This document shows, piece after piece, positions 1 to 16,775 of a DNA stretch of 64,000 nt. The first letter of the stretch is position 1. Each line of letters begins with the position of its first letter. A program made the position numbers and the translations under genes. This DNA is from a virus (taxonomy: Duplodnaviria > Caudoviricetes), in the IMG/VR virus record IMGVR_UViG_3300044991_001466; one strand, written 5' to 3'. The notes under the pieces were generated by a model. It was not told the origin of the DNA, did not search any database, and worked only from the letters and a program-made list of their open reading frames with translations.

Positions 1-1234
1 ATATGTAATCAAAGATTTAGTTGATTACACAAATATTCATAAATTAGATTTATCATATTCAATCGATGCAACAAGTGCAAGTATTACACCAATTACCACA
101 AATCCCGGTACAATATCATTAGGTTCAGTAAAAGGTGGTACTTCTTCATTTAAGGTGAGAGTGTTGTTTCCACAAGGATATACGATTGCTGACCACGGGA
201 TTTCGTTATTACAATTAAACGCGACTAAAACTGATGTTGATTGGACTAAAGCCCCATTAGCATTTAAACAATTAGATGCAAGTGGTGAAGCGACATTTAC
301 AACCGAAGTTAAAGTAGGAGATACGATTGGATTAATGGTGAGTCCGCCAAATGGTAAAACATGGATGAACAATGTTATAACAGTGTCTGACGCATATAAA
401 GCATTTTTAGGTATTGCTCAAACTGACATTAATGGCACAAAAAACTTTTTCCAATATAATCGAGAAAGAATAATGGCTAATGTATCTAAAGATGATGGTA
501 CGGGTACAGAGATTTATAATGAGACAGATGCATATTATTTATTTTCACATGTAATGGGTATAGATGTGAGTACAAAGGCATTTATTCCGTCATCTACCGC
601 CACAACACTTCGTTATGGTAGTTCATTATTAAATCAAGGATGGTTAGATGGTACAAATAAGTATATAACAACCGTAACATCAGCAACACAAGCGGTGGAT
701 ATGGTTTTTGCTTGGAATGGTGATTTAGATTTTTCTCACTCATCTTCATTAACTGAAATTGCAAGTAGAATATCAACTGGTAATTACGCAAATTCAATTA
801 AAGGTAATGATGAAGTTGGAGTTAATAAATCAATGTCAGTTCAATCAATGTCATATAATCAAGTATTTGAAACTGCTAAATTAAGTTTAACCTCTACAAT
901 AGTTAACGGTAAGGTAGTATTGACTGGTAATTTAACAAAAGAAGGTTTAGCTGGTTTAGAGGTTATATTACAATATGATAATTCTAAATTAACTTTTGAT
1001 AACATTTCATTTGATGCGGGTCCAAGTGTAACTAACTTTTCAACAAATGCAGATGGTAGATTAACATTTGGTTCTATGGATCAAACAAAAACCGCAAGAA
1101 TTAAGACAGGTACACCATATAAATTAACATTTACACCAAAAGAAACCATAACAAACACCTCAGGTTTATTCTATACAGTTTTAGCTGATGCTGTTGATGG
1201 AAACGGAAACAAAATTAATTTGACAGTGGAGTAA
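1..1234 (+). CDS. Dockerin- and cohesin-like domain protein, 5' truncated by window edge
   Basis: The frame of ORF 155..1234 stays open back to position 2 (YVIKDLVDYT...), so the GTG at 155 is internal. It has dockerin-like segments NVITVSDAYKAF and ANVSKDDG..IYNETDAYYLFSHVMG, a WNGDLDFSHS motif and a C-terminal cohesin-like LAGLEVILQYDNSKLTF. It is paralogous to the next gene. Confidence 0.65.
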   Translation, partial: YVIKDLVDYTNIHKLDLSYSIDATSASITPITTNPGTISLGSVKGGTSSFKVRVLFPQGYTIADHGISLLQLNATKTDVDWTKAPLAFKQLDASGEATFTTEVKVGDTIGLMVSPPNGKTWMNNVITVSDAYKAFLGIAQTDINGTKNFFQYNRERIMANVSKDDGTGTEIYNETDAYYLFSHVMGIDVSTKAFIPSSTATTLRYGSSLLNQGWLDGTNKYITTVTSATQAVDMVFAWNGDLDFSHSSSLTEIASRISTGNYANSIKGNDEVGVNKSMSVQSMSYNQVFETAKLSLTSTIVNGKVVLTGNLTKEGLAGLEVILQYDNSKLTFDNISFDAGPSVTNFSTNADGRLTFGSMDQTKTARIKTGTPYKLTFTPKETITNTSGLFYTVLADAVDGNGNKINLTVE

Positions 1235-1237
1235 TCT

Positions 1238-3532
1238 ATGAATAAATTATTTTTAATATTATTTTTATTTACATCATTCTTAGGGTTCGGACAGAGTGTA
1301 TCTGCTCCGGACTCTAAATCTTTTTTACCATCCACAAATGGACAAGATGCAAGTGGGTTTATATTAAGTGGATTCAGTTCTACGGCAACTCTATTAGCAT
1401 CAATCAGTTTAGTAGAATTCCCAACAGGTACAACATTTGTATTAAATACAACAACGGGCCTAACTGCTGCAAGTGGATTTACTTTAAGTGGTAATAAAAC
1501 TCGTTTAGTAATAACGGGTACAATGACAAGTATCAATACGGCATTGACATCCCTAAAAATAAACACAGGTTCGGTAGTTGGTAATGTAAAATTATCGGTT
1601 GCTGCAACAATTAATCCAACAGGATTTTATTACAATGGTGTAAATGGTCATTTTTATAAACCCGTAACGGCAGGTACAACTTATACTGGTGCTAGAGCAG
1701 CATCGTTATTAACAACATTCAAAGGGCAGACGGGGTATTTGGTAACAATAACATCGGCATCTGAAAATGCTTTTATATTTGCTAATGTACCACAAGCTAA
1801 CATATGGTTTGCAGCAACGGATGAAGTTACCGATGGTAGATGGGTAATTGATGCGGGACCTGAAAAGGGGACGGTAATGAAAACCCAAAACGGACAACTT
1901 AATGGAAACATTGCCGGCGTATATAACAACTGGGCACAAGGTGAACCAAATGGTGGTAATCATACTGAGGATTATGCAGTAACAAATTGGAACGGACAAT
2001 CAACATGGAATGACTTATCAAACAATTGGACTAATCCATACATAATTGAATATGGAACTTGGACTAATCCTGATGATGCAACATTTACGGAGTTTTACAC
2101 CAATAGTGTATCTCATTCAAATGGTGAAGTCCTAACTGCTAAATTTAATTTTGACTTTGGTGGTAATGTGGATGAAACTAAATTTTCAACAAAGGCAAAT
2201 AGATATGTAAATAATCTATGGAGTACCACTACCAACACATCAAGAGCAATAAGTGGATTGGGTAAGGTTGATATTACAAATGATTTGGATACCGCAAAGG
2301 TAAGTGGGGTTGGTACTAAAGCAACAACATCCGCCGGACAAGTTGAATGGGCAATAATAAATCCATATGATGCAAATTTAGGTGGACATCAATTGTTAAT
2401 AGATGAAAGAGAATTTGATGGAACTGGAGTATCTCCAAGTAATGTAACATCAATTAAATTATTTGATATATACGATGGACCGGTTAGTGTTCATAGTGTA
2501 AGTGGTTTTTGGAAAACTTATATAATGCCGGGTAATTTGACAACCAAAATAACTTCATCTACATTTCAAGCTCAATTAAGATTACAAGATGGTTGGTATG
2601 GAACGAGAGCTGAATTTACTTTCTCACCAATTCAAAGTTATAAACAACACGGGATTGAATTAACATATACCAATCAAACGGATTTAAACACTTTATACAA
2701 TAGTGTTGTGACCGTATCGGATGTGTTTATTGCATTCAAAGAATTATCAAATGGTGGGATATTTGGAAATGAAAGTGGAAATGAATTCACATCAGGTATT
2801 CAATTTTTGAACGCGGATGTAGATGGTAATGGTATATTCAACGAAGCGGATACATACAAACTATTACAACATTTGACAGGAGTTCAACCACTTACACAAA
2901 ATCCACTATTAACTTTTCTGATGAAACTTTATAGTAAATCAGATTATGATTCAATTACTAAATCTAATTGGAATACAAAATTCAATTCAACAAGAAGTTT
3001 ATATCCGTTTAGTTTAAATACGGGTACACTTAATAACACATACAATGTTAATGTTACTTGGAAAGGTGATGTAAACCTATCTCATTCTGCACAACAAAGT
3101 GCAACTGGTGTCTCCGGTAATTCTATTAGAACTATGAGTTTGAGTACTAATTCAGTTTCAAATGAAGTAAACGCTTTAATTATGGGCGAAACCGTAGGTA
3201 ATAAAGTTATAGTTACAATATCAATAGACCCATTACAACAAGAAGTGGTGGGAACACAATTTCAATTAAACTATGATAATACCTCATTAAGTTTTGAGAA
3301 GGTGGAGTTTACAACTAAGGGAAACCCAACCAATTTTGGAAGTGATAGAGGTAATTATATTACATTGGGTTCATTAATAACTGATGGGTCAACTCTATTA
3401 GATAAAACAACAGAATATAAAATAACATTTGTACCAAAAATTGAATTGGGTGGAATATTGGGATTGACTTCAATATCAACAACCGATGCCGTTAATAAAG
3501 ATGGTAAACAATTAAAAATTAAATTGAACTAA
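1238..3532 (+). CDS. Secreted C-type lectin / dockerin / cohesin-like protein
   Basis: Sec-type signal peptide (MNKLFLILFLFTSFLGFG-Q). C-type lectin-like region with GYLVTITS, WAQGEPN and WND. Dockerin-like repeat NADVDGNGIFNEADTYKLLQHL. C-terminal cohesin-like VVGTQFQLNYDNTSLSF. Confidence 0.72.
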   Translation: MNKLFLILFLFTSFLGFGQSVSAPDSKSFLPSTNGQDASGFILSGFSSTATLLASISLVEFPTGTTFVLNTTTGLTAASGFTLSGNKTRLVITGTMTSINTALTSLKINTGSVVGNVKLSVAATINPTGFYYNGVNGHFYKPVTAGTTYTGARAASLLTTFKGQTGYLVTITSASENAFIFANVPQANIWFAATDEVTDGRWVIDAGPEKGTVMKTQNGQLNGNIAGVYNNWAQGEPNGGNHTEDYAVTNWNGQSTWNDLSNNWTNPYIIEYGTWTNPDDATFTEFYTNSVSHSNGEVLTAKFNFDFGGNVDETKFSTKANRYVNNLWSTTTNTSRAISGLGKVDITNDLDTAKVSGVGTKATTSAGQVEWAIINPYDANLGGHQLLIDEREFDGTGVSPSNVTSIKLFDIYDGPVSVHSVSGFWKTYIMPGNLTTKITSSTFQAQLRLQDGWYGTRAEFTFSPIQSYKQHGIELTYTNQTDLNTLYNSVVTVSDVFIAFKELSNGGIFGNESGNEFTSGIQFLNADVDGNGIFNEADTYKLLQHLTGVQPLTQNPLLTFLMKLYSKSDYDSITKSNWNTKFNSTRSLYPFSLNTGTLNNTYNVNVTWKGDVNLSHSAQQSATGVSGNSIRTMSLSTNSVSNEVNALIMGETVGNKVIVTISIDPLQQEVVGTQFQLNYDNTSLSFEKVEFTTKGNPTNFGSDRGNYITLGSLITDGSTLLDKTTEYKITFVPKIELGGILGLTSISTTDAVNKDGKQLKIKLN

Positions 3533-4425
3533 TGAAAAAACTAATAATAATTCTGTTACTAATTTCGATTACATTTGTTACAAAAGCCCAAATTGTAAAA
3601 CCCGATACATTACAATTATCACCAAAGGAATTATTTGGTGAAAGTGATGATTGGAACGATGTGGGTGTATTACAATCCTATGTTAATTTTTCAAAAGATG
3701 TGCTTTCATCCTCAAACTTATCAGTTGGTATAATCGGAAAGCAAGTATCCACTACTCTTAATTTGGGTTACAATAAATCATCTATGAATGGGCAATGGGG
3801 TCACACATTCGCAGCATCAATAAATCCTATATGGAACTATTATGGTGTGGGATATGGTCTTAGTAAAAATACCGAAAAGAGAACAACCACATTACAATCA
3901 TTTTATTCAACCGATTTTGATTTTCAAAAAGATATTACACTATCATTCATCGATGTATTCAGAACTAAAAAGTTTGGAACATTTGGATATAGTTTAATTG
4001 CATCAAAATCTTTTTGGGGAACATATGAAGGTCAATGGGAAGGAAAATATACGGTAGATGAAAATGGTGATTTTAAAGATTTAATATACCCAATGATACC
4101 GGCATCAAGTGAAATAAGTTATAGAGGTATGGTGATGTACACATATACATTGAAAACAAAGAGAGTAAACATATCACCACAAATATTTGCAATGAGTGAT
4201 GTATATAAAGTATTTAAAGATGGTACTACATCGGATTTATCGTATTTTGATGATTTCAATTTGGACTTATATTATGGTACATCTATCGATTGGAAGGTAA
4301 CTAAAAGATTTGTATTAAATACTAATATTAGATATAACACAACTTTTGATAAATTAAGTGAATCAGTTGGTTATAAAAAGAGTAACCCAATAATGTTTAT
4401 GATAGGAACAAACTTTCAATTTTAA
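3532..4425 (+). CDS. Probable outer-membrane beta-barrel protein
   Basis: Signal peptide ending TKA-Q, alternating hydrophobic/aromatic strands, C-terminal Phe (GTNFQF). Paralogous to the C-terminal half of 8581..10161. Confidence 0.6.
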   Translation: MKKLIIILLLISITFVTKAQIVKPDTLQLSPKELFGESDDWNDVGVLQSYVNFSKDVLSSSNLSVGIIGKQVSTTLNLGYNKSSMNGQWGHTFAASINPIWNYYGVGYGLSKNTEKRTTTLQSFYSTDFDFQKDITLSFIDVFRTKKFGTFGYSLIASKSFWGTYEGQWEGKYTVDENGDFKDLIYPMIPASSEISYRGMVMYTYTLKTKRVNISPQIFAMSDVYKVFKDGTTSDLSYFDDFNLDLYYGTSIDWKVTKRFVLNTNIRYNTTFDKLSESVGYKKSNPIMFMIGTNFQF

Positions 4426-4766
4426 TGAAAAAGACATTACTCATATTTGTAATTTTATTGGTGGGATGTGTTAAACCAGACCTGCCTGTTCCAATACCAC
4501 AAATTACCTATGTATTTGATGTAAAGGAAAGTGAAGTAACAAATGGACAGGATATATATTTTAAACTGCCATCCGATGGTATACATACTTTAACTTTAAT
4601 TGATAAAGAAAGTGGGCAAGTGGTTAGTAGAGAAAAATTTAATGGTAAATCGGGTGAAAATGTGAAAAAAATTTACACCAATTCCCTACTTAAGGGATAT
4701 TTACTATTAGTGTTGGAAGACAATAATAAGAATCAATTAGGTAAAACAATAATAATAAATAAATAA
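4425..4766 (+). CDS. Lipoprotein with T9SS C-terminal-domain-like Ig fold
   Basis: Lipobox LVG-C15; pattern TLTLID..GQVVSRE..NGKSGEN....TNSLLKGYLLLVLED...KTIIINK; paralogue of 4783..5157. Confidence 0.5.
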   Translation: MKKTLLIFVILLVGCVKPDLPVPIPQITYVFDVKESEVTNGQDIYFKLPSDGIHTLTLIDKESGQVVSREKFNGKSGENVKKIYTNSLLKGYLLLVLEDNNKNQLGKTIIINK

Positions 4767-4782
4767 AAGAAACCCAAGTCAA

Positions 4783-5157
4783 ATGAAAAAGCTATTTATA
4801 GTGGTATTAAGTTTAATGATTCTTACAGGTTGTAGAAAAGAACAGGATTTTCTTCCAACTATTCAACAAGCACCCGAAGATTTGAAAATATCTAGTTCTT
4901 TAGGTATTAAATTACAATCACCATTTGTCACTTCAGAGGTTGCAATGAATGTTAAAAGTGAAATTGTGGGATCTGTAACAATTAAGATATTTGACATCTC
5001 AAATAGAGTTGTTTCAAAAGAGACCGTTAACGTAATTGTTGGAGATAATATACTTAAAGTATATACGTCATCATTACCAAATTCAGCATATAGAATTGGT
5101 TTTTTTGATTCAAAAAATAATATGTTAGGAATAACAGATTTTAATAAAATAAACTAA
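4783..5157 (+). CDS. Lipoprotein with T9SS C-terminal-domain-like Ig fold
   Basis: Lipobox LTG-C17; GSVTIKIFDISNRVV...GDNILKV..SSLPNSAYRI resembles the type A CTD pattern (V.I.IYD..G..V....G.N....S.L..G.Y). Confidence 0.55.
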   Translation: MKKLFIVVLSLMILTGCRKEQDFLPTIQQAPEDLKISSSLGIKLQSPFVTSEVAMNVKSEIVGSVTIKIFDISNRVVSKETVNVIVGDNILKVYTSSLPNSAYRIGFFDSKNNMLGITDFNKIN

Positions 5158-5175
5158 AAATTAAACACAAATAAA

Positions 5176-5493
5176 ATGGCAGAAGAAACACAAGAACAAG
5201 AAGGAACATGGTCAAGTCTTAAAAAGACAATAATTGGAATTGCAGGAACAGTAGTAACCGCTGGCGGCGTATGGTTAACAACATTGTTAGGTGGTGGTGA
5301 CAAAGCCGAACCCGCACCAGTACAAGCCGCACCAGTAATTAACATTACAACTAATCAAACTCAACAACAAGCTGCTGGTGGTAATAAAACTGTAATCATC
5401 AATAAAGGTGGTGATGGTAAAACAACCCAACCAGTTGCAAAACCTAAGAAAAAAGAAGGTGATGAGTTTAAAGAAGAGGCACCTAAATGGTAA
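5176..5493 (+). CDS. Single-pass membrane protein with low-complexity tail
   Basis: Hydrophobic segment TIIGIAGTVVTAGGVWLTTLLG followed by a Pro/Gln/Lys-rich region; co-oriented with neighbours. Confidence 0.6.
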   Translation: MAEETQEQEGTWSSLKKTIIGIAGTVVTAGGVWLTTLLGGGDKAEPAPVQAAPVINITTNQTQQQAAGGNKTVIINKGGDGKTTQPVAKPKKKEGDEFKEEAPKW

Positions 5494-5495
5494 TT

Positions 5496-5609
5496 ATGCT
5501 TTCTATGATAAACCAACTATTTTATTTAATATCAGGATTATTGATAACAGTCGGAATTGTATGTGGCGTTATGTACACAGCAATTAAGTTAAATGAAAAA
5601 TTAAATTAA
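5496..5609 (+). CDS. Small single-TM protein (37 aa, below ORF-track cutoff)
   Basis: ATG at 5496 gives MLSMINQLFYLISGLLITVGIVCGVMYTAIKLNEKLN, ending TAA at 5607-5609. It fills the gap between two co-oriented genes. Confidence 0.5.
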   Translation: MLSMINQLFYLISGLLITVGIVCGVMYTAIKLNEKLN

Positions 5610-5615
5610 AAAAAA

Positions 5616-6209
5616 ATGAGTAAACAACAATCACCAAGTGGTTTTAAAGATTTATTAAGTAACATGATGGCCAGAAGATGGTATATCACAGCATTGGTGT
5701 TAGGTGGGTTTATGTTAATAATTGGTGGTATGTTTGTTGCCATTATTAATAAAAATGAAATTGCCGGAGAATGGAAAGAACTTCTTTTATTATTATTGGG
5801 AGCTTTCATCGGTTCTTATGGTAAAATCATTGACTATTGGTTTAGTGATACCGATAAGGATAAGATGTTAGTCCAAAAAATGGATGAAGAAGATGGTACC
5901 TCATTAAGTAACACTGCCGATTTACCAAACAACCCAATTGTACCTATGTCGACCGCACCATTGGTTTTACCAACAAGTGAAGAAGTTGAAGTACCCAAAC
6001 CACAACCCCGTACAGGTGTTGAAGTAGATGAAGATGGGGATGGCATAATGGACGGTATTGATTTTGATGGTGATGGTAAAATTGATATGTACTTTGCACA
6101 TAGACAATGTGAGCACGTATGGGGAGATTTAGATGGTGACGGTATCGAGGAGTGTTTGAAATGTGGTAAAATAAAAGATGAAAATGCAGAAATGCACACG
6201 GAAGGATAA
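5616..6209 (+). CDS. Two-TM membrane protein with DxDxDG calcium-binding loops and Cys/His tail
   Basis: Two hydrophobic helices, then DEDGDGIMD, DFDGDGKID and DLDGDGIEE, with CEH...CLKC at the end. Confidence 0.55.
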   Translation: MSKQQSPSGFKDLLSNMMARRWYITALVLGGFMLIIGGMFVAIINKNEIAGEWKELLLLLLGAFIGSYGKIIDYWFSDTDKDKMLVQKMDEEDGTSLSNTADLPNNPIVPMSTAPLVLPTSEEVEVPKPQPRTGVEVDEDGDGIMDGIDFDGDGKIDMYFAHRQCEHVWGDLDGDGIEECLKCGKIKDENAEMHTEG

Positions 6210-6238
6210 AATAAACAAAAGACAAAAAATAAAAAACT

Positions 6239-6487
6239 ATGAAATTTAAAGAATGGGCTATTGAACTCTTCAAAGACGAAAGAGGTTCAATTTCAGTAAA
6301 ACCAGTTATCGCATTTGTGGGAGCAATGTTCCTATGTGTAACTATGATCTTAAATTCGTTCTCTCACGCCGAATTTGCACCATCACCTGAATTGGTGAAT
6401 GCTGTGATGATTATTACAGGAATCGGAATGGGCGCGGATACAATGGATAAATTCTCTCATAAAAAGAAAGAAGAAACGGAAGGTTAA
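6239..6487 (+). CDS. Small two-TM membrane protein (holin-like topology, function unknown)
   Basis: Two hydrophobic segments and a charged C-terminus KFSHKKKEETEG. Confidence 0.5.
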   Translation: MKFKEWAIELFKDERGSISVKPVIAFVGAMFLCVTMILNSFSHAEFAPSPELVNAVMIITGIGMGADTMDKFSHKKKEETEG

Positions 6488-6490
6488 TAT

Positions 6491-6517
6491 AAAGGGAGTT
6501 AAAAACTCCCTTTTTTT
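6491..6517 (+). terminator. Rho-independent terminator
   Basis: aaagggagtt-aa-aaactccc hairpin followed by a T7 run. Confidence 0.8.
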
Positions 6518-6520
6518 ATG

Positions 6521-6528
6521 TATTTATA
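6521..6528 (+). promoter_or_regulatory. TATTTATA late-type motif upstream of CsgG-like gene
   Basis: Exact TATTTATA directly after a terminator; the same motif precedes the terminase, portal, protease, scaffold and tube genes. Confidence 0.6.
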
Positions 6529-6542
6529 TTAAAATAAGATGT

Positions 6543-7265
6543 ATGAAAAAATTATTAATATTATTAAGCGTTTTTTTACTAAGCGCTGTTGTCGTTGACG
6601 GACAAACAATAGGTAAAACTAAGACAGAGGACTACAAGGCGGACTTTGAAAAAAAAAGAGATATAAGTGCGTACATGGATTACGATGGTCCTCAAATTCC
6701 AATTCAAATATTAAAGGCAGGAATTTCTGACGAGATGTATGAAATGTATCCTGAACTAAAAGAAAAACGTGTTGGTTTAGGTGTTGCAAATATATCTATG
6801 GAATACCTTGAAAACTTAAACAGATTTAAATTTACTGAAGACAAGACAGAAATTAAGAATAGGATGGTAAAACAATTTCAAGCATCTGCGGCAGGTATTT
6901 CTGAGAATAAATTAGATGGTCGTGGTAAAATCAATTTGGCAAAGTATTTTGTGACGATTGAGTGTTATGACTACTCAGTGTCAGAAGATGAAACCATCAA
7001 CCTTAAAAATGGTATACAAGACAATATGGTAACTCGTATAGGTCTTCAGGTTAGGTTTACAGATGCGGAGACAGGTGTCTTATTTGGTGGGTCAGGTTTA
7101 GGTGAAGCAACAACAAAAAGAGAATTAACTCTTTTATCTGATGCATCTATTGACCCAATTAAATTCAACCAATCAACAATTAGTATTGCAACTAAAAAGG
7201 CGTTAGATATTGCCTGTGCTAACATTCTTGATAGAATGATTAAAAAGGGAATATTTGCAAAATAA
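6543..7265 (+). CDS. CsgG/HfaB-family protein
   Basis: Signal peptide; GLGVANISMEYLENLNRFKFTED, AKYFVTIECYDY and RIGLQVRFTDAETG follow the CsgG-family pattern. Confidence 0.65.
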   Translation: MKKLLILLSVFLLSAVVVDGQTIGKTKTEDYKADFEKKRDISAYMDYDGPQIPIQILKAGISDEMYEMYPELKEKRVGLGVANISMEYLENLNRFKFTEDKTEIKNRMVKQFQASAAGISENKLDGRGKINLAKYFVTIECYDYSVSEDETINLKNGIQDNMVTRIGLQVRFTDAETGVLFGGSGLGEATTKRELTLLSDASIDPIKFNQSTISIATKKALDIACANILDRMIKKGIFAK

Positions 7266-7292
7266 CTATATTTTAAAGATTTAATAAAAAAT

Positions 7293-7317
7293 AAGGGGTG
7301 TAATAACCCCTTTTTTT
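7293..7317 (+). terminator. Rho-independent terminator
   Basis: aagggg-tgtaataa-cccc followed by a T7 run. Confidence 0.75.
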
Positions 7318-7329
7318 ATATTTATAAGT

Positions 7330-7566
7330 ATGAGAGTGTGTGAAGTAATTGATGTACCACAAAAAGTTGATTGTGAAAACTGTGTCCCTTGTTTAAGATT
7401 AAAAATGATGGAGATGGGGTTTATATGTGGACAACAAATTGAAATAAGTGAAAAAAAGTTAGGATTATATTTGGTTAATGTTTTATCCGGTAGTGGCCAC
7501 GTAGAATCAACTTTAGCGTTAAGACCTGAAGAATTAGATAGAGTTATTTTAAAAGATATATTATGA
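7330..7566 (+). CDS. feoA: FeoA-domain protein
   Basis: RLKMMEMGFICGQQIEI...LGLYLV...LALRPEEL matches the FeoA SH3-like signature; N-terminal CENCVPC cluster; TATTTATA 3 nt upstream of ATG. Confidence 0.75.
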   Translation: MRVCEVIDVPQKVDCENCVPCLRLKMMEMGFICGQQIEISEKKLGLYLVNVLSGSGHVESTLALRPEELDRVILKDIL

Positions 7567-7742
7567 AAAAATTTATAAGAATTCACGACGACAAAGTTTT
7601 TTTTGGTGTATGTAGTGGTTTAAGTCACCGTACTAATGTTGATCCATTGGTTTGGAGGTTGTTGTTCTTTTTTTTAATATTTTCACCATTCCCAATAATA
7701 ACCGGTTATTTACTAACCACAATTTTAACTGAAACAGTATGA
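7563..7742 (+). CDS. pspC: PspC-domain membrane protein (59 aa, below ORF-track cutoff)
   Basis: MKKFIRIHDDKVFFGVCSGLSHRTNVDPLVWRLLFFFLIF matches the PspC pattern (R...D....GVC.GLA....D...VRL.F). It overlaps feoA and has an ATGA overlap with the next gene. Confidence 0.8.
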   Translation: MKKFIRIHDDKVFFGVCSGLSHRTNVDPLVWRLLFFFLIFSPFPIITGYLLTTILTETV

Positions 7743-8581
7743 AAAAGGTTTTATTAGTTACAGGTTTAATATTAATATTAATATTATTCTGCACAATAAT
7801 GTTGAATGCTCAAGTATCAACTTGGAGGCAAACTGGTGGAAGCGTTCCATCACAAACATCACAATCAACTCAAACAAGAGTTCAACCATCTGTACCACAA
7901 CAACAAAATGTGAGTAGTTGGAGAAACAACCCACCACAACAATCACAACCATTACCACCACGTGGTAGGGGAGGTATTCAAAATTGGGGTCGAGTTAATC
8001 AGTTTGGTTACTATTGGGGTAATTGGGGATGGTATCAACCTTATCCTTATACTTGGTATGATGATTATGGATGGAGACAAAGAAGTGTAATTCATGTATA
8101 CGAAAATGGAAAGAGAGATACTATTAGAAAAGAACGAGTTCATACCGCATTTGGATTTGGGTATACTAATAATAAACAAGCAACTTATTGGGGAATGGTT
8201 GGTGGTAAGAAAGGATATTTTATTATGGATTATGTAATGACTTATGCAAAAGACCAAAACCAATACTTTCCGTATGGACAAATTAACAATGTTGATTTTT
8301 CACTTAGTAAAGAAGATTGGAAAAAAGAATCAACTTTTTATATTGGTGCTGGTAAAAGAATTAATAATATAGGAATACATGGTATGATAGGGTTTGGTAG
8401 TGAAGTTATTAGATGGCAAGGTAAAGATGACTTAGGTGGTATATCATTTCCAAAATCAAATTCAACATTTACAACATTTAAAATTGGAATAATAAAAGAT
8501 TTCAAATTCTTTACTTTAAAATTAGATAACGATCCAATAAGGGGGTACACACAAATAGGAATAGGATTGAATAATAAGTAA
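7739..8581 (+). CDS. Exported protein with Gln/Pro- and Trp/Tyr-rich N-region and probable beta-barrel
   Basis: Signal peptide ending LNA-Q; amphipathic beta-strands in the C-half (TFYIGAGKR, GIHGMIGFG, YTQIGIGLN). Confidence 0.5.
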   Translation: MKKVLLVTGLILILILFCTIMLNAQVSTWRQTGGSVPSQTSQSTQTRVQPSVPQQQNVSSWRNNPPQQSQPLPPRGRGGIQNWGRVNQFGYYWGNWGWYQPYPYTWYDDYGWRQRSVIHVYENGKRDTIRKERVHTAFGFGYTNNKQATYWGMVGGKKGYFIMDYVMTYAKDQNQYFPYGQINNVDFSLSKEDWKKESTFYIGAGKRINNIGIHGMIGFGSEVIRWQGKDDLGGISFPKSNSTFTTFKIGIIKDFKFFTLKLDNDPIRGYTQIGIGLNNK

Positions 8582-10161
8582 TGAAAAAAATAATAATATC
8601 TCTCCTAATATTATTTTTTTGTAGTAAGTCTTTTGGACAAAGTACAATAACACAAACGTACATAGACCCGTGTGATAATAAAGTCTATGTTGTTGTAATT
8701 CCATTCGGACAAAATCAAACTGTTGCTGTTATTAGGGGTAAATCTAAAATTGTAACATTAGCCGACATTAGTAGTGGTACTTTTCAAACATGGGTGAATA
8801 GTATATTTGCAACACCTTGTCCACAAAACGATAATATCAGATTAGCACAAGAAGCCGCAGCAAGGGCGGCAGCAGATGCCGCAGCTAGAGCCGCCGCGGA
8901 TGCTGCGGCAAAAGCGGCTGCGGATGCTGCGGCAAAGGCCGCATCAGATGCTGCAGCAAAGGCGGCGGCAGATGCTGCAGCTGCAAGTGCATCGTCAGCC
9001 GCAAGTAATTCAGCATCATCGGCAGCAAGTTCATCGGCAAGTGCCGCCGCAAGTTCTGCAGCTGCAAATGCTGCAACACCTCCACCAATAAACATTGCAC
9101 CTCCACCACCCGCTCCGGTAGTTACTGCACCTCCACCAACGGCAGCACCTCCACCGGCATCAAGTAGTTCATCACCACCTCCCGCAAGTGGTGGTTCATC
9201 TTCTTCTTCATCAAGTAGTTCATCATCAACTGAAGCAAAACCAGCAGAAAGTAAACCAGCGGAAACTAAATCAGATAAACCAGCTGAACAAAAAACCGAA
9301 GAAAAGAAAACTGAAGCTAAGACAGAAGAAAAGAAAGAGGAAACAAAAACAGAAGAAAAGAAATCAGAAGAAAAAAAGACTGAGGAGAAAAAGGAAGAAG
9401 CTAAAAAAGAAGAAGAAAAGAAAGAGGAAACTAAAAAGGAGGAAGAAAAAAAGAAAGAGGAAGAAAAGAAAAAAGAAGAAGAAAAAAAGAAAAAACAAGA
9501 AGTAACAAATCCAACGTTACTTGCGTCAGATATAACCGGTGCAGAACAACCAGACGGAACTTATTTAGCCTCAATTTCAATGGGACTTAGTAAATCATCT
9601 TTGGCGGGTGATGTAAGTTATAGTACAGGATTGGTTGTGAATAGTAATTTAAGTTCTATTGTAATGACGGGTGGAATTACTAAAATGGGATTAACAAAAG
9701 ATGGACAGTTAGATGCAATACATTCATACGGAACCGCATTTGCATATTTAGGTGGGAATTACATGAATTTGTTAGGTTACACTTGGATTAAACCTACACC
9801 AAAAAAAGGTACATATGGTTATAACGTAGGTATTATTAATTTATTTCTTAAAAATGATAGTGGTGGATTTGATTATAATATGGCCAGTTCGGCAATTGTA
9901 TTTTGGACTAAACCTTATCAATATTCAAAAAAATTAACGGTTTCTCCACAAGTGTTTACAATGTTCTCACCCATATCATGGAATAGTTCAAATGGTGAAA
10001 CAAACGTGAATAGACATATGGGATTTTTATTGGGGGCGGCTTTTGATTATAAAATAACAAAAAGATTTGGGTTTAGTTTTAATTACAAAATGAGTGGGAA
10101 TACTAATCCAGGTTCTCCATTTTTAAGTAATTTCTTAATTGGCTCAAGAATGATGCTTTAA
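8581..10161 (+). CDS. Exported protein with TolA/TonB-like long linker and C-terminal beta-barrel
   Basis: Signal peptide ending SFG-Q, then Ala-, Pro-, Ser- and Glu/Lys-rich blocks. The C-terminal domain aligns with 3532..4425 (KKGTYGYNV/KKFGTFGYSL; VSPQVF/ISPQIF; DYKITKRF/DWKVTKRF). Confidence 0.6.
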   Translation: MKKIIISLLILFFCSKSFGQSTITQTYIDPCDNKVYVVVIPFGQNQTVAVIRGKSKIVTLADISSGTFQTWVNSIFATPCPQNDNIRLAQEAAARAAADAAARAAADAAAKAAADAAAKAASDAAAKAAADAAAASASSAASNSASSAASSSASAAASSAAANAATPPPINIAPPPPAPVVTAPPPTAAPPPASSSSSPPPASGGSSSSSSSSSSSTEAKPAESKPAETKSDKPAEQKTEEKKTEAKTEEKKEETKTEEKKSEEKKTEEKKEEAKKEEEKKEETKKEEEKKKEEEKKKEEEKKKKQEVTNPTLLASDITGAEQPDGTYLASISMGLSKSSLAGDVSYSTGLVVNSNLSSIVMTGGITKMGLTKDGQLDAIHSYGTAFAYLGGNYMNLLGYTWIKPTPKKGTYGYNVGIINLFLKNDSGGFDYNMASSAIVFWTKPYQYSKKLTVSPQVFTMFSPISWNSSNGETNVNRHMGFLLGAAFDYKITKRFGFSFNYKMSGNTNPGSPFLSNFLIGSRMML

Positions 10162-10191
10162 AAAAAATCCTCGAAGTAAAAACTCCGAGGA
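10162..10191 (-). terminator. Rho-independent terminator for the minus-strand block
   Basis: On the minus strand tcctcggag-tttttac-ttcgagga followed by a T run. Confidence 0.6.
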
Positions 10192-10243
10192 CATGACAAA
10201 AAATAGATGTATCTCTCCAAATACATTAATAAAATATAAAAAA

Positions 10244-10573
10244 TTAATTTTTATTTGTCAACTCTTGATAAAGATTTTTTATTTCACAACATTTTTCATA
10301 ATCTTCAATCATTTCAAAATAAGGGATTAAATCTCTTTTTAATACTATAGATTCTTCTTTATGAAATATGAATTCAGTTTCCCAATCTACGTTCATAATT
10401 TTTGCAGACACAAAAAGGACTAATGATTTTTTTCTTGTATTCTTAAATTCTTTAAATATATTTAAAATATTTTCATATATAACGTCTTTATTTTCATCAT
10501 AAAAATCGGTAAAATCTTTATATTTTCCATTAATTTGTAAAGAGATGAACGGTGCAGATTTTCTAGTTCCCAT
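10244..10573 (-). CDS. Hypothetical protein (possible C-terminal UVR-like motif)
   Basis: Clean ORF; ends YFEMIEDYEKCCEIKNL. Confidence 0.55.
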   Translation of the reverse strand: MGTRKSAPFISLQINGKYKDFTDFYDENKDVIYENILNIFKEFKNTRKKSLVLFVSAKIMNVDWETEFIFHKEESIVLKRDLIPYFEMIEDYEKCCEIKNLYQELTNKN

Positions 10574-10642
10574 TAAGTTTAGTTTAGTTAGTTAGTAAAT
10601 GTTAGAACATAAAATTACAAATAATATTTTAATTAAAAAAAA

Positions 10643-11134
10643 TTATTTTTCCCCCTTTGTTCTGTCCCATTTAGCCGCTCTTGCTTCTGGTGACAAATGA
10701 AGTTTTTCGTCTATAGTGTGTTCAATTTTAACCCTAATACAGGTCTGAGGTGTCCTACAGTTCATAAAGTAGTTATTTATATAACCCATCATGTTTGCAC
10801 TACCAATAGGATTGGCTGAATGGACATAAATTTGAGGTAAGGGTATTTTAGTATTCATACTTTCACTTACCAAATATCTACAACAATCCATACCGGTTTT
10901 TTCATCAATGTTATTATAATTTAATTCATAATTATTTTTAACATTTGTATAATATTCAATCATAGCACCATCACCTAAATCGTGATCAAGTGATATAACA
11001 TCAAAATTTTCTAATCCATGTAATTTAATTTTTGCAACAAATTCATCGTAATTACGAACAATTATCCAATCATTATCCAAAGGCGTACGAACGTCATCCA
11101 AATACAATCTCAATTTATTATTAATTTTCATCAT
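10643..11134 (-). CDS. Cyclic-phosphate-processing receiver-like domain protein
   Basis: LYLDDVRTP, VRNYDEF, ISLDHDLG, TGMD and VHSANPIG motifs; adjacent to an RNA ligase. Confidence 0.7.
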   Translation of the reverse strand: MMKINNKLRLYLDDVRTPLDNDWIIVRNYDEFVAKIKLHGLENFDVISLDHDLGDGAMIEYYTNVKNNYELNYNNIDEKTGMDCCRYLVSESMNTKIPLPQIYVHSANPIGSANMMGYINNYFMNCRTPQTCIRVKIEHTIDEKLHLSPEARAAKWDRTKGEK

Positions 11135-12158
11135 TTTTAAATGGCTTTGAATAATTTGGATATATAATTTTCCAAATATTTTTTTTATGTTCTTTTCCGT
11201 CTAACATGTTAAATAAAATGTTAGAGTGTCTATATTCTTTTGCTCTAATCGCAAACTCTTTTCTATCTAAATTTCGTGATTTTAAATTCTCATAAATCTC
11301 AATATAGTCCTTATTAATATTATCAAATCTAATAGTAAAATCCCTAATAGTTTCTTTAACCCAACCGTTAAATTCGTCTGGAACTCTTTCAAGTAATTCA
11401 TCGAACGGTTTATTGTCTTTCAAATATTCCCATATATCACGATTAGATATGTTAGTTAAAATTTTGTGAAGTCTAACATATTCTTCTCCTTTGATTTTCA
11501 TACGAAAACCATTCTTAAATTTAATTACATATCCCTCTCTGTCTTTACTAATTTCTTCTTTAAGTAAATCATATCCTTCTCCCCAAGTCTTATATGTCAT
11601 TACAACTTCAAATCCCGAATCCTGCGTCCAAAACAAACTACTATCAGGTATTTCTTCACCTGTTTCTGTATGAAAACCACCAATAACAACTAATTTTTCT
11701 TCACCTTTATAATCAACAACAATTCTATTTTCAGGATAAATAATTTCAAACAAATATGTATTGTCTTTTCTCCATGCACTGATGTCGTGTCTATCAAGAA
11801 TTTCTTTACCCTTAATTGCCTGTGGTGATGTGAATGATCCGCGTGTTGCCATTATCCACTCATTTTCATAATTAAAAAGAATACCTAATGAACCATCCAT
11901 CTTTTCATATACGACATAATCTTCATTTGGAATATCTTCTGGTTTATGTTCTTCGTAGTTGAAAAATTTCTTAAATGGTCGAGCAACAATATCACCTTTT
12001 GAATTTGTAACCAATCCACGACATTGCAAAGTAATCTCATCCCATAATCTTTCGTACTGAACTTTTGGACTATAATTCCAAATAGTTAAATCAAGGGTTG
12101 GATGGGTTTGTTTATGTAACAAACCATCTTTGTGGTATCTTTCTAATGTTTCTAACAT
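11121..12158 (-). CDS. T4 Rnl1-like RNA ligase
   Basis: CRGLV, ARPFKKFFN, adenylation motif EKMDGSLG, ATRGSF, FEII, EGYV and KIKGEEY. Confidence 0.9.
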   Translation of the reverse strand: MLETLERYHKDGLLHKQTHPTLDLTIWNYSPKVQYERLWDEITLQCRGLVTNSKGDIVARPFKKFFNYEEHKPEDIPNEDYVVYEKMDGSLGILFNYENEWIMATRGSFTSPQAIKGKEILDRHDISAWRKDNTYLFEIIYPENRIVVDYKGEEKLVVIGGFHTETGEEIPDSSLFWTQDSGFEVVMTYKTWGEGYDLLKEEISKDREGYVIKFKNGFRMKIKGEEYVRLHKILTNISNRDIWEYLKDNKPFDELLERVPDEFNGWVKETIRDFTIRFDNINKDYIEIYENLKSRNLDRKEFAIRAKEYRHSNILFNMLDGKEHKKNIWKIIYPNYSKPFKNDEN

Positions 12159-12403
12159 TACTTGATGGGTTTATAAAATCCAATATTGTAAGTCCATTTC
12201 AACCAATTAAATGACAAGTATATACCACATAATTTATTATCTAATAATGTTCTATGTGATTCTGGTTCACATGTTTCAAAATAAAAATATACAAAGGGTA
12301 ATGGGTATACAGCCCATTGATTTTTAAATAAACTTGAATGAAATTTCATATTTCGTTGTTTTGGTAATGTTGTTTTAAAATAAGATTCAATAAATTGACT
12401 CAT
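12158..12403 (-). CDS. Hypothetical protein
   Basis: Abuts flanking genes in the same operon. Confidence 0.5.
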   Translation of the reverse strand: MSQFIESYFKTTLPKQRNMKFHSSLFKNQWAVYPLPFVYFYFETCEPESHRTLLDNKLCGIYLSFNWLKWTYNIGFYKPIK

Positions 12404-12832
12404 CTATAACTTTATTTCAAACCTATCCTTCATTTGTTGGAGTTTATTTTCGGGTACTCCGTGAATATTTTCATTACCATGTCTGTTTTCAACAACCACA
12501 CAATGTACTCGGTAATTATACCTTTCAGCCATTTCAAAATAAGTTTTCATTTCCCATTCTTGGGTAAAAGTATTTGCAACAACTATACGAGCAATTCCCT
12601 GTCTCATTCTTTCTGAACATCTAAATTGACAATAGTTATGTGCTTCTTTTATTTTGGTGCCATCAAAAATATAATCACCATCATCGTTAACAAAAAAATC
12701 ATCCGCAGATAAAACTTCTTGCGGATTATTATTTGGTTGTAATAATATAATATTTGCTATTGTTGATTTTCCTGAACCAGGAATTCCTCTTAAAAGTATT
12801 AAATCACCATTTATTTCATTTACATTATCCAT
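12404..12832 (-). CDS. P-loop polynucleotide kinase-like protein (AAA_33 type)
   Basis: Walker A RGIPGSGKST, SADDF, VVANTF and HGVP; clustered with the RNA ligase. Confidence 0.8.
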   Translation of the reverse strand: MDNVNEINGDLILLRGIPGSGKSTIANIILLQPNNNPQEVLSADDFFVNDDGDYIFDGTKIKEAHNYCQFRCSERMRQGIARIVVANTFTQEWEMKTYFEMAERYNYRVHCVVVENRHGNENIHGVPENKLQQMKDRFEIKL

Positions 12833-12886
12833 AGGAGAGATTTAGAATTAAAAAATAGGGGAAGGAATAACCCAACCCCCAATTTC

Positions 12887-13069
12887 TTATTTTACAACTG
12901 CGCTGTCTGCTGGAATTTCCCCAGCATTTCCTGTTTCGGGAAGTGAAGTAGAAGTTGTATCGGCTTGAACCGAAGTTGAGTCAGTTGTTTGAGTTGCGGT
13001 TGACTCTGAACCACAAGCTGATAGTGTAAGTGCTACACCAAGAGCCAAAATAAATGTTACTTTTTTCAT
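12887..13069 (-). CDS. Small Ser/Thr-rich lipoprotein (60 aa)
   Basis: Start refined to MKKVTFILAL (ATG at 13069); lipobox LSA-C19; DST, DTT and DSA motifs. Confidence 0.7.
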   Translation of the reverse strand: MKKVTFILALGVALTLSACGSESTATQTTDSTSVQADTTSTSLPETGNAGEIPADSAVVK

Positions 13070-13114
13070 ATATAGTAAATATACGATTTTTAAATCACAA
13101 AACAAAATTTCAAT

Positions 13115-13142
13115 AAAAAACCCCAACGAGATGTCGGGGTTT
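13115..13142 (-). terminator. Rho-independent terminator
   Basis: On the minus strand aaaccccgac-atctc-gttgggg followed by a T6 run. Confidence 0.75.
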
Positions 13143-13216
13143 AAGGTCTTTGGGTGGGTTCAACCCCACTTACTTATTAAAAAAACGAAAAGGTAATCGA
13201 CAAAGAGAACCTTCAA
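13143..13216 (-). ncRNA. Candidate small structured RNA (or 18-aa TTG-initiated peptide)
   Basis: Lies between TATTTATA (13220-13227, minus) and a terminator. The ends pair (AAGG..UCUUUG with CAAAGACCUU) and there is an internal hairpin GUGGG-GUUGAA-CCCAC. Confidence 0.4.
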
Positions 13217-13251
13217 GAATATAAATATATATGTTTTTACAAAAAAACAAA

Positions 13252-15273: not shown

Positions 15274-15400
15274 ATTTAATAAGTTTTATGTATACAAACA
15301 TAACACATTCTATACAAAAAACCAAATAATAGACAAAATGTCAAAAATTTTTTTTTATCGATTATTTTTTGTATTATTGTTAATATAAAACTATAAAATC

Positions 15401-15646
15401 ATGTCAATAAAAAAAGAAAAAATCAGTGGGGAAATGATTGATGTAACAATCAAATCTTCAAGTCTTAAGTCAGCATCTTATGACTCATTATCAGAAAGAT
15501 TAACAATTACATTCAATTCGGGGGCTTCTTACGAATACCGTAAAATCCCAATGTTATTGTTTACTAAATTTAGACTGGCAAAGTCTCAAGGGACGTACTT
15601 TAACAAGTTCATCTCTAAAGAGTTTAAATTTAAAAAATTAGATTAA
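15401..15646 (+). CDS. KTSC-domain protein
   Basis: KSSSLKSASYD...LTITFNSGASYEY..IP..LF..F..AKSQGTYFN. Confidence 0.85.
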   Translation: MSIKKEKISGEMIDVTIKSSSLKSASYDSLSERLTITFNSGASYEYRKIPMLLFTKFRLAKSQGTYFNKFISKEFKFKKLD

Positions 15647-15649
15647 AAC

Positions 15650-15679
15650 GAAACCCCGAGAAATCGGGGTTTTCTTTTT
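15650..15679 (+). terminator. Rho-independent terminator
   Basis: aaaccccga-gaaa-tcggggtttt followed by a T-rich tail. Confidence 0.75.
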
Positions 15680-15704
15680 GATATTTATTACATATATTAA
15701 TGAT

Positions 15705-15950
15705 ATGGGAATAACATCAGAAAGAATCGAGGGTAAGATGATACACGTTATCATCAACTCATCAAATTTAAAAGAGGCATCTTATAACACAGAGAGCGAG
15801 GACTTAACTGTCACTTTTAATAATGGAACTATTTATGAATACAATAAAGTTCCTTGGACAAAATTCACTAAGTTTAGACTTGCTGAATCACAAGGAAAAC
15901 ACTTTAACGAAAATATCGCTAAAGGACATAAGTATAAAAAAATAGGATGA
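15705..15950 (+). CDS. KTSC-domain protein (second copy)
   Basis: NSSNLKEASYN...LTVTFNNGTIYEY..VP..F..AESQGKHFN. Start refined to MGITSERIEG, downstream of TATTTATT at 15682. Confidence 0.85.
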   Translation: MGITSERIEGKMIHVIINSSNLKEASYNTESEDLTVTFNNGTIYEYNKVPWTKFTKFRLAESQGKHFNENIAKGHKYKKIG

Positions 15951-16705: not shown

Positions 16706-16775
16706 AGAACCTTATTTTTTCCCTATATGTATGTATTTATAGGATAAGAATAAGTATATCTAACAATCAAAAAAA

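Follow-up and report, generated by a model that had tools for sequence, protein, structure and literature searches.

A conserved gene block of freshwater bS21 huge phages as a candidate module for remodeling the envelope of the infected Bacteroidota cell

The first 10,161 nucleotides (nt) of a 64,000-nt stretch of viral DNA (here called the window; bases 48,866 to 112,865 of the 129,722-bp IMG/VR record IMGVR_UViG_3300044991_001466) belong to a block of about 11 kb of co-oriented genes, g0 to g14, which begins 1,074 nt upstream of the window. Freshwater "bS21" huge myophages of Bacteroidota carry the block as a conserved accessory module. We tentatively favor the interpretation, to which we give close to an even chance, that the block acts as one module for envelope remodeling and surface display on the infected cell. 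That interpretation draws on the conserved order of the genes, their coupling, the presence of paralogue pairs, predicted locations in every layer of the envelope, and a putative promoter element of the phage.

RESULTS

The gene block is conserved in order among related phages

Open reading frame (ORF) calling over positions 1 to 10161 gave 13 tightly packed plus-strand genes and one doubtful 40-codon ORF, and g0 lies on the same strand upstream of the window. The first-pass annotation, made from the letters of the window, had described a run of co-oriented exported, lipoprotein, and membrane genes; the run was borne out and extends 1.07 kb beyond the upstream edge of the window. Stop and start codons overlap at the g2/g3, g3/g4, g11/g12, g12/g13, and g13/g14 junctions. 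The doubtful ORF (positions 5487 to 5609, 40 amino acids [aa]) had a single tblastn match, lies in a region that is variable in populations, and was not counted as a gene.

A scan with g3 confirmed 102 relatives in viral contigs, 80 of which, 75 to 95% identical, were kept for locus counts. When all block proteins were searched by tblastn, the order g0-g1-g2-g3-g4-g5-g6-g8-(g9)-g10-(g11-g12)-g13-g14 was kept in more than 70 IMG/VR contigs, and thus the synteny among related bS21 phages that the first-pass annotation had named as a check was found. The same minus-strand cREC_REC and RNA ligase genes follow the block in relatives. Median identity across the clade was 86% for g3, the most conserved protein of the block, 83% for g10, and 76% for g8, compared to 69% for the neighboring RNA ligase, and it ranged from 56 to 73% for g1, g2, g4, g5, g6, g13, and g14. 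Distant phages binned into metagenome-assembled genomes (MAGs) keep a reduced core of g0, a cohesin protein, g6, g8, g9, g10, and a g14-like barrel. Moreover, g6 (5176 to 5493, 105 aa) is conserved in 75 loci and occurs also in the distant relatives L086, L087, and L089. Short contigs with distant relatives of g3 gave no useful gene context.

Part of the locus is variable. g11 was present in only 18 of the 80 related loci and g12 in 11, and contigs of two lake metagenomes (X4 and X18) carry a deletion of positions 7326 to 7562 that joins the ends with TTA between them and removes g11. The deletion in co-occurring strains amounts to gene-content microdiversity within populations. In the relative L012 (positions 12332 to 15810), an insert between g9 and g10 consists of a TonB-dependent-receptor-like gene (Plug and OMP_b-brl_3 domains) and a gene for a 400-aa lipoprotein, and in the complete 335-kb relative L079 (positions 12935 to 15016), the g9-g10 gap holds genes for a 357-aa unknown protein, a Phage Tail Collar-domain protein, and a class 3 lipase. 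We note that the locus attracts further envelope genes, the receptor and lipoprotein of L012 being one example.

The variable genes and the g9-g10 inserts are what would be expected if the block were a hotspot of independent envelope "moron" genes, each acting alone as a receptor blocker, porin, or stress modulator, with no single machine among them. The g11-deletion variant, the unrelated nature of the inserts, the division of the block into three transcription units each with its own terminator (see below), and the scattered outer-membrane protein genes found in 18% of huge phages (preprint 10.64898/2026.10.24.761521) point the same way. Typical morons, however, are not conserved like g3, g10, and g8, which at 76 to 86% identity exceed the RNA ligase, nor does a collection of independent genes account well for an order from g0 through g10 that persists in more than 70 contigs, a core that persists in distant relatives, and overlapping stop and start codons. 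Moreover, the paralogue pairs g1/g2, g4/g5, and g3/g14 suggest matched partners. We therefore regard a hotspot of independent genes as a serious but somewhat unlikely alternative to a single envelope-remodeling module.

Export signals are concentrated in the block

Export signals were judged by three sequence-based tests: clustering, the Q-rule, and lipoprotein motifs. When an N-terminus rule (signal peptide, lipobox, or anchor) was applied to all 144 ORFs of the record, 9 of the 15 in the block carried such a signal, versus 4 of 129 elsewhere (Fisher p = 5e-8). Among those four is a minus-strand ORF of 60 aa at 12887 to 13069, with a clean lipobox (LTLSA-C) and a Thr/Ser-rich tail. Within the block, g1, g2, g3, g10, g13, and g14 begin with an n-region and an h-region followed by an (A/G)-Q N terminus. 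The Q was invariant or nearly so in ortholog alignments of g1, g2, g10, g13, and g14 and merely the consensus residue in that of g3, and the signal peptides themselves have diverged among orthologs while the (A/G)-Q sites persist. The persistence of sites that fit the Bacteroidetes Q-rule for signal peptidase I substrates (PMC5837995) supports real export and a Bacteroidota host. g4 and g5 have a lipobox cysteine, and transmembrane (TM) helices are found in g0, g6, g8, g9, and g12. We conclude that the signal peptides claimed for the block are supported by Q-rule sites, by lipoboxes with a surface-export-like motif (see below), and by clustering.

Two related outer-membrane barrels are predicted

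g3 (3532 to 4425, 297 aa) was modeled with AlphaFold2 (AF2) as an all-beta protein with 12 long strands, at a predicted local distance difference test (pLDDT) score of 70, and ends in a C-terminal beta-signal (...GTNFQF). Foldseek gave 73 PDB barrel matches at an E value of 1e-3 or lower, of which the best were NanC/KdgM, FapF, PcoB, and the EspP beta-domain, and the best matches in the AlphaFold database (AFDB) were C-terminal autotransporter barrels with modest TM-scores. A PDB profile search with g3 returned nothing. An invariant N-terminal extension of about 40 aa looks like a putative binding segment. The modeling, a check named in the first-pass annotation, confirmed g3 as a predicted 12-stranded outer-membrane beta-barrel.

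Residues 310 to 511 of g14 (8581 to 10161, 526 aa) are homologous to g3 (hhalign, 97.4%, 1.1e-11). The protein is ordered as an 80-aa N-terminal domain with two cysteines, a low-complexity linker of about 230 aa rich in Ala, Ser, Pro, Lys, and Glu, and the C-terminal barrel, a predicted layout that is autotransporter-like (passenger-linker-barrel). The linker (window positions 8850 to 9560) runs from poly-Ala/Ser through Pro-rich and poly-Ser stretches into K/E repeats (K/E tract at 9432 to 9478), and its length varies between strains, with 24-nt and larger indels in metagenome contigs.

Two QVSxWRxNPP repeats and a stretch rich in W, Y, and G occur in g13 (7739 to 8581, 280 aa). Its C-terminal domain is a possible barrel, a lead that comes from an Atlas match to outer-membrane protein beta-barrel families (0.88). 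No homology was found when g13 was compared with g3 and g14, and it was rejected as a paralogue of either. Where three probable beta-barrels had been proposed, g3 and the C terminus of g14 therefore stand, and the third has only the Atlas lead.

g10 is predicted to have a CsgG fold

g10 (6543 to 7265, 240 aa) has a signal peptidase I site, VDG-Q, and no lipobox cysteine, and Q21 is invariant in 28 aligned sequences, all of which have an (A/G)-Q site of the signal peptidase I type and no cysteine at that position. The AF2 model (pLDDT 74) was compared with known structures: the top 20 Foldseek matches in PDB were all CsgG, with E values down to 9e-8, and VIA-align gave Z scores of 11.2 to 12.0 for CsgG over 158 to 185 residues, at a root mean square deviation (rmsd) of about 4 Å, and of 9.4 for PelC. 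Matches in AFDB were CsgG, FlgT, and LpoB-type proteins, and Atlas matches pointed in the same direction. The Pfam model of CsgG (PF03783) matched neither g10 nor any of 27 orthologs at an E value of 0.05 or lower, a PDB profile search with g10 returned nothing, and a protein homolog search with the g10 alignment was dominated by close phage orthologs and shows abundance only.

The model of g10 has long strands at residues 135 to 154, 157 to 174, and 180 to 196, and the distal part of the hairpin is acidic, with invariant S145, S147, E148, D149, and E150 (S-x-S-E-D-E) and no hydrophobic stripe. Compared with CsgG, mature g10 is shorter by about 40 aa. Because g10 has neither a lipobox nor a hidden Markov model match and has an acidic hairpin tip, we file it as a CsgG fold and not as a demonstrated CsgG pore. 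The earlier name, CsgG-family protein, thus holds for the fold, which modeling confirmed (Z 12), and fails for the PF03783 match and the lipid anchor.

A bacterial relative of g10 was found in an Ignavibacteriales MAG (L091). The protein is 38% identical to g10, passes the Pfam CsgG model (28.6 bits versus a cutoff of 20.8), has the lipobox LFNAC-G, and is encoded beside TruA, EamA, and a CHASE2 cyclase. The operon at L091 positions 9974 to 17410 encodes the CsgG-family lipoprotein, a 204-aa exported protein, an 825-aa transglutaminase-like exported protein, the CHASE2 adenylate cyclase, and a 428-aa barrel-like protein, and no cellular context closer to the g10 family was found. Within the block, g0 (-1074 to -424 relative to the window, 216 aa) has an N-terminal membrane anchor, replaced by a cleavable signal peptide in some orthologs, and a weak match to Lipoprotein_16 (YajG-like) in 26 of 29 orthologs. 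g0 was considered as a clear paralogue of g10, which is unproven, as the two share a 22-residue C-terminal motif only (hhalign probability 22%).

The match of g10 to PelC rings raises another explanation for the block, namely, a device that exports and anchors a phage-specified polysaccharide, with a PelC/HfaB-like g10 ring and the barrels exporting the polymer and the lectin and cohesin proteins tethering it, as in holdfast-anchor or Pel systems. CsgG/HfaB relatives anchor the holdfast, the best PDB matches of g3 include the acidic-sugar porins NanC and KdgM, and the lectin motifs of g2 are conserved (see below). The barrel matches are generic, however (TM-scores of 0.45 to 0.6), and the block has no glycosyltransferase, no flippase, and no Wza-, PelB-, or BcsC-type component. 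The clade does carry many polysaccharide and lipopolysaccharide genes (PMC9723584), but these glycan genes lie tens of kilobases away. We consider polysaccharide export quite unlikely and retain envelope remodeling and surface display as the preferred interpretation.

g1 and g2 are related exported proteins, one with a C-type lectin domain

g1 occupies positions 1 to 1234 and is open at its 5′ end in the window, which holds the 3′ 410 codons of a 553-aa protein whose gene starts 427 nt before the window. Besides a signal peptide that ends in SFG-Q, the protein has a segment resembling a dockerin and, at its C terminus, a cohesin domain (Pfam Cohesin, 7.5e-6, 26.6 bits versus a cutoff of 24.1); a PDB profile search with g1 returned nothing. 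g2 (1238 to 3532, 764 aa) has a signal peptide ending in GFG-Q, a C-type lectin domain at about residues 138 to 278, an EF-hand/dockerin-like loop, DVDGNGIFNEAD, and a cohesin-like C terminus. The last of these is assigned only through paralogy with g1 over the C-terminal 300 aa or so (27% identity over 313 aa, 1e-17).

The Pfam match of g2 to Lectin_C (PF00059) is borderline (2.9e-4, 22.0 bits versus a cutoff of 22.6). A profile of g2 orthologs, however, found 45 PDB sequences at an E value of 1 or lower, nearly all of them C-type lectin carbohydrate-recognition domains; mannose-binding protein A (1.7e-4) was the best, and Mincle, CEL-I, and SP-D were also among the top matches. The motifs of the Ca2+/sugar site are present as E236-P237-N238 and W257-N258-D259, and among 24 orthologs, N238 is invariant and the other residues are at least 90% conserved. 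We conclude that g2 is, as judged from its motifs, a canonical Ca2+/mannose-type (EPN/WND) C-type lectin, for which the EPN motif predicts binding of mannose, GlcNAc, or fucose-type glycans.

The dockerin assignment is weak. Pfam Dockerin_1 matched at an E value of only 0.09, with one canonical loop (DVDGNGIFNEAD) and a degenerate first repeat. A complex prediction of the g1 and g2 cohesin regions with the dockerin-like region of g2, folded without alignments, gave a score of 0.01 and a partner pLDDT of about 39, values that count neither for nor against an interaction. Two cohesin/dockerin paralogues, one with a lectin, had been read from the window; the paralogy, the g1 cohesin, and the lectin hold up, and the dockerin is the weak part.

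g4 and g5 are paralogous lipoproteins with a surface-export-like motif

g4 (4425 to 4766, 113 aa) has the lipobox LVG-C followed by C-V-K-P-D and is predicted to be a small beta-sandwich, and its paralogue g5 (4783 to 5157, 124 aa) has the lipobox LTG-C and a beta-sandwich that resembles DUF3244 and Por_Secre_tail. Orthologs of g5 read C-x-K-(D/E)(D/E), as in CYKDD, CRKDD, and CTKDD, and among 49 distinct orthologs an acidic residue occurs at +2 to +6 in 47 and at least two in 30. Orthologs of g4 have D or E at +5 in 65% of cases and K at +3 in most listed examples. The lipoprotein export signal (LES) C-X-K-(D/E)2-X sends Bacteroidetes lipoproteins to the cell surface (PMC5080379). The g4/g5 motif fits the LES, and surface exposure is predicted.

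Among 40 orthologs of g4 and g5, DUF3244 matched 15 and Por_Secre_tail matched 5 (best, 8e-4), all weakly, and the Por_Secre_tail match of g4 itself was at 0.029. The matches are weak but recur, and we therefore take both proteins to be small Ig-like sandwiches. The predicted sandwich is the whole mature lipoprotein and not a type IX secretion system (T9SS) tag on a cargo. A PDB profile search with g4 and g5 returned nothing, a search of NCBIfam found nothing, its T9SS and PorP/SprF models included, and a PHROGs search with ten block proteins gave matches at the level of signal peptides only. Of the first-pass wording, T9SS C-terminal-domain-like lipoproteins, the paralogous lipoproteins remain, and the sorting-domain part falls away.

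Small membrane proteins and the possibility of a lysis function

g6 is a single-pass membrane protein with a Pro/Ala/Lys-rich tail. g8 (5616 to 6209, 197 aa) has two TM helices, for which an N-in/C-in topology is predicted from sequence, and a C-terminal domain that is acidic (DxDGDG) and Cys/His rich. g9 (6239 to 6487, 82 aa) has two TM helices and a charged C terminus, a class II holin-like layout. g12 (7563 to 7742, 59 aa) is a membrane protein with a PspC domain (PF04024; 3.6e-15, 56 bits versus a cutoff of 25), as had been claimed for the block. The claim of a FeoA protein was not upheld: g11 (7330 to 7566, 78 aa), a predicted cytoplasmic, SH3-like protein, matched FeoA (PF04023) below the Pfam cutoff (5.1e-4, 20.5 bits versus 23) and is FeoA-like by resemblance only.

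The holin-like layout of g9, the two TM helices and large charged cytoplasmic tail predicted for g8, and the PspC domain of g12 suggest a further alternative in which the block would control lysis or egress. The envelope would be disrupted, or the timing of its disruption set, by g8 and g9 (holin- or antiholin-like), PspC, and the CsgG-like protein. No other holin was identified, the block shares its promoter motif with virion genes, and a lysis function has been hypothesized for the CsgG/CsgF genes of phage Melnitz (PMC9004378). Lysis nevertheless has no need of a 764-aa lectin, cohesin proteins, paralogous barrels, and surface-type lipoproteins; g4 and g5, at about 100 aa and with a beta-sandwich, are unlike o-spanins; and no PHROG lysis family was matched, signal-peptide-only matches aside. 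Moreover, the block has no lysozyme or amidase, Phage_lysozyme is absent from both the record and the complete relative, and the sole Amidase_2 candidate in the complete relative lies about 120 kb away. We judge lysis control unlikely, below an envelope-remodeling and surface-display module in our ranking. That Amidase_2 candidate stands together with genes for a sigma-70-like factor, a 97-aa membrane protein, and a 382-aa multi-TM protein (L092 positions 1428 to 4561; G001, about 214.4 to 217.6 kb), a cluster that may be the real lysis region.

The block is divided into three transcription units

A hairpin terminator with a T-run follows g9 (6491 to 6513), and the motif TATTTATA stands at 6521 to 6528, 22 nt before the ATG of g10. 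g10 in turn is followed by a bidirectional hairpin terminator with a T-run (7293 to 7312) and a second copy of TATTTATA (7319 to 7326), 11 nt before the ATG of g11, all of these on the plus strand. A third hairpin terminator with a T-run (10167 to 10192), between g14 and convergent minus-strand genes, ends the block. Across relatives, TATTTATA precedes g0, g10, g11, and g13 and never the internal genes, and upstream of g10 it was present in 17 of 47 distinct ortholog sequences. The terminators, together with TATTTATA at unit starts, indicate three transcription units, g0 to g9, g10, and g11 to g14.

Elsewhere in the phage, TATTTATA is found 7 to 46 nt upstream of terminase, portal, the gene preceding the capsid gene, and tail genes, and it also precedes many unknown genes and genes of the replication region, around DNA polymerase. 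The motif thus behaves as a putative promoter element of the phage itself. The first-pass annotation had placed the phage's own late motif and terminator style in the block; motif and terminators were both found, and the label "late promoter" was not adopted because of the copies near DNA polymerase.

Freshwater metatranscriptome contigs were 90 to 99% identical to parts of g1, g2, g6, g8/g9, g10, and g14, and sequence words derived from g10 made up small shares of 19 RNA runs from 18 studies. The occurrence in RNA libraries is compatible with expression in nature.

The block is phage DNA

The window encodes a large terminase (20776 to 22551), a portal (22606 to 24423), a major head protein (27943 to 29694), a DNA polymerase (50641 to 53538), and a tail sheath (59503 to 61989), with a minus-strand ORF of 63 aa for ribosomal protein bS21 (25165 to 25356; Pfam, 6e-10) located between portal and capsid. 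In 2022, Chen et al. described bS21 huge phages of Bacteroidetes from fresh water (PMC9723584), and the position of bS21 seen here is the one described for that clade. The virion and replication genes and bS21 together match the window to the clade, and we conclude that the source is a jumbo bS21 myophage from freshwater with a Bacteroidota host. The published study does not discuss the block; its annotation table and supplement name PspC only, with the neighbors left unannotated.

IMG/VR labels the record a provirus with a completeness of 39%, and the genes of the block are bacterial-looking in type, both of which would suit host sequence, either chromosomal DNA joined in error to a phage contig or an island within a provirus. 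Nevertheless, dozens of independent viral contigs, the longest about 335 kb, show the same ordered block with the same phage flanks, and one of them is a relative record of 335,630 bp that is rated 100% complete. Near-identical DNA was found in more than 20 lake metagenomes, where some contig pieces match exactly. The g3 family comprises 29 representatives at 50% identity, mostly fragments, among 1.84 billion proteins; all Atlas neighbors of g3 are viral, and the family is essentially phage-only. Moreover, base composition is uniform, and the only clearly bacterial relative of g10 is just 38% identical. The recurrence in viral contigs and lake metagenomes and the phage-only g3 exclude host DNA and misassembly, the outcome that the first-pass annotation had said would undo its proposal, and a host origin is extremely improbable. 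We conclude that the block is phage DNA and is not misassembled.

No host flank was seen within the 130-kb record, and the provirus label is doubtful; the record looks like a fragment of a lytic-type huge phage of about 335 kb rather than an integrated element. A megablast search of the block against GenBank phages gave no match. Directly downstream of the block, on the minus strand (10643 to 12158), a gene for a cyclic-phosphate-processing receiver domain (cREC_REC, 4.7e-23) overlaps one for a T4 Rnl1-type RNA ligase (5.3e-19), and the two, conserved in relatives, may be an RNA-repair pair.

DISCUSSION

If the block acts as one module, its products would enter the host envelope by the Sec, signal peptidase I and II, Lol, and Bam routes. 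g6, g8, g9, and g12 are predicted in the inner membrane; the YajG-like g0 and g10 are predicted in the periplasm, where g10 would probably form a ring or scaffold, soluble or peripheral, and not a pore with a lipid anchor. The paralogous 12-stranded barrels of g3 and the g14 C terminus, and perhaps g13, would lie in the outer membrane, with g4 and g5 at the cell surface by way of their LES-like motif and the multidomain g1 and g2 predicted to be secreted. The barrels, g10, and g0 might then hold or translocate the lectin/cohesin proteins and the N-terminal domain of g14, and the infected cell would carry a phage-specified glycan-binding coat. Such a coat could mask or cross-link surface glycans and thereby block superinfection and the loss of progeny on debris, or it could render the cell adhesive.

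Several observations weigh against this model. No T9SS sorting domain (PF18962, TIGR04183, or TIGR04131) was detected in g1 or g2, nor any other known route across the outer membrane, and because of this the two proteins may stay in the periplasm. Their dockerin assignment is weak. g10 is without the lipid anchor of CsgG and has an acidic hairpin tip in place of a lipid-facing stripe. The dispensability of g11 and g12 and the variable g9-g10 inserts indicate that part of the locus behaves as a cargo hotspot. As to timing, TATTTATA is not specific to late genes, and presence in RNA libraries is by itself no proof of expression. Finally, physical association of the block products is a supposition of the model.

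A more specific version of the model is a dedicated envelope-spanning organelle on the infected cell. It would be built from inner-membrane proteins, a nonlipidated ring with the CsgG fold, and split autotransporter-like barrels, and it would present a Ca2+-dependent lectin together with scaffolds linked through cohesins. Infected cells might then bind glycans on neighboring hosts, on algal particles, or on phage-made polysaccharide, and the organelle would serve as an adhesion or "sibling-capture" device or as a self-made glycan coat. We regard this version as speculative and improbable in its full form.

About 3% of a genome of roughly 335 kb would be given to rebuilding the host envelope, and this part is conserved as well as or better than neighboring enzyme genes. 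Should the products act together, they would form the most elaborate phage-encoded cell-surface system described, and views of superinfection exclusion, adhesion, and particle association of infected Bacteroidota, and hence of carbon flow in lakes, would change. A nonlipidated CsgG-fold protein, a phage-only barrel family, and an EPN C-type lectin in a virus of prokaryotes would each be new biology, and the block gives a starting point for asking what CsgG genes do in phages.

Phage envelope proteins encoded by single genes, such as Llp of T5, Bor and Lom of lambda, and Cor, serve in superinfection exclusion; they are lipoproteins or outer-membrane proteins that host machinery inserts into the envelope, where they alter the surface of the cell. 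Each is encoded by one small gene, and most belong to temperate or T5-like coliphages. To our knowledge, no conserved module of some 15 genes that includes a lectin and a CsgG-fold protein is found among them.

Individual components can be set beside cellular counterparts. E. coli CsgG (PDB 4UV3 and 6L7A) and g10 are both exported and have a fold in common over about 176 residues (Z 12, rmsd about 4 Å). They are only 9 to 11% identical, however, and g10 is without the lipobox cysteine, detectable amphipathic transmembrane hairpins, and the CsgE, CsgF, CsgA, and CsgB partners. Type Va autotransporters and other 12-stranded barrels (the EspP and BrkA beta-domains, FapF, and NanC/KdgM) are the best fold matches of the predicted barrels, and g14 has the passenger-linker-barrel order. 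The TM-scores are only 0.4 to 0.6, however, no Autotransporter Pfam model matched, and g3 is a barrel alone that follows a separate secreted protein; moreover, type V secretion is not established in the Bacteroidota hosts of the block.

The first-pass annotation knew of no phage system with this composition. The gene set is indeed undescribed in the literature searched, but the claim needs to be qualified by precedents for its parts. A 2026 survey of barrels in huge phages (preprint 10.64898/2026.10.24.761521) included 678 freshwater outer-membrane proteins and reported barrels of 10 to 22 strands, often beside envelope-related genes and with metatranscriptomic support, and g3 and g14 are of the same general kind. 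The neighbors in that survey are mostly transport genes, however, and it makes no mention of CsgG, lectin, cohesin, lipoproteins, PspC, or the bS21 clade and describes no such multigene module.

In UniProt, one protein from an uncultured Caudovirales phage bears the name CsgG. A CsgG/CsgF "curli" operon was reported by Zaragoza-Solas et al. in pelagimyophages of the HTVC008M group, which also carry bS21, and "sibling capture" was proposed (PMC7029224); Buchholz et al. reported the same operon in the Methylophilales phage Melnitz and proposed a role in lysis timing (PMC9004378). Like the phage studied here, these are myophages of aquatic bacteria in which a CsgG-family gene shares a small operon with genes for exported hypothetical proteins, and the host is without the system. 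Unlike the present block, theirs is a recognizable proteobacterial-type CsgG with CsgF, whereas here CsgF is absent and g10 is short, nonlipidated, and missed by the Pfam model. We conclude that phage-encoded envelope proteins and phage CsgG are already known and that the Bacteroidota-adapted composition of the block is undescribed in the literature searched. Compared with the pelagimyophage and Melnitz operon, the block is far larger and combines a lectin, cohesin proteins, predicted 12-stranded barrels, and LES-type lipoproteins under the export rules of Bacteroidota.

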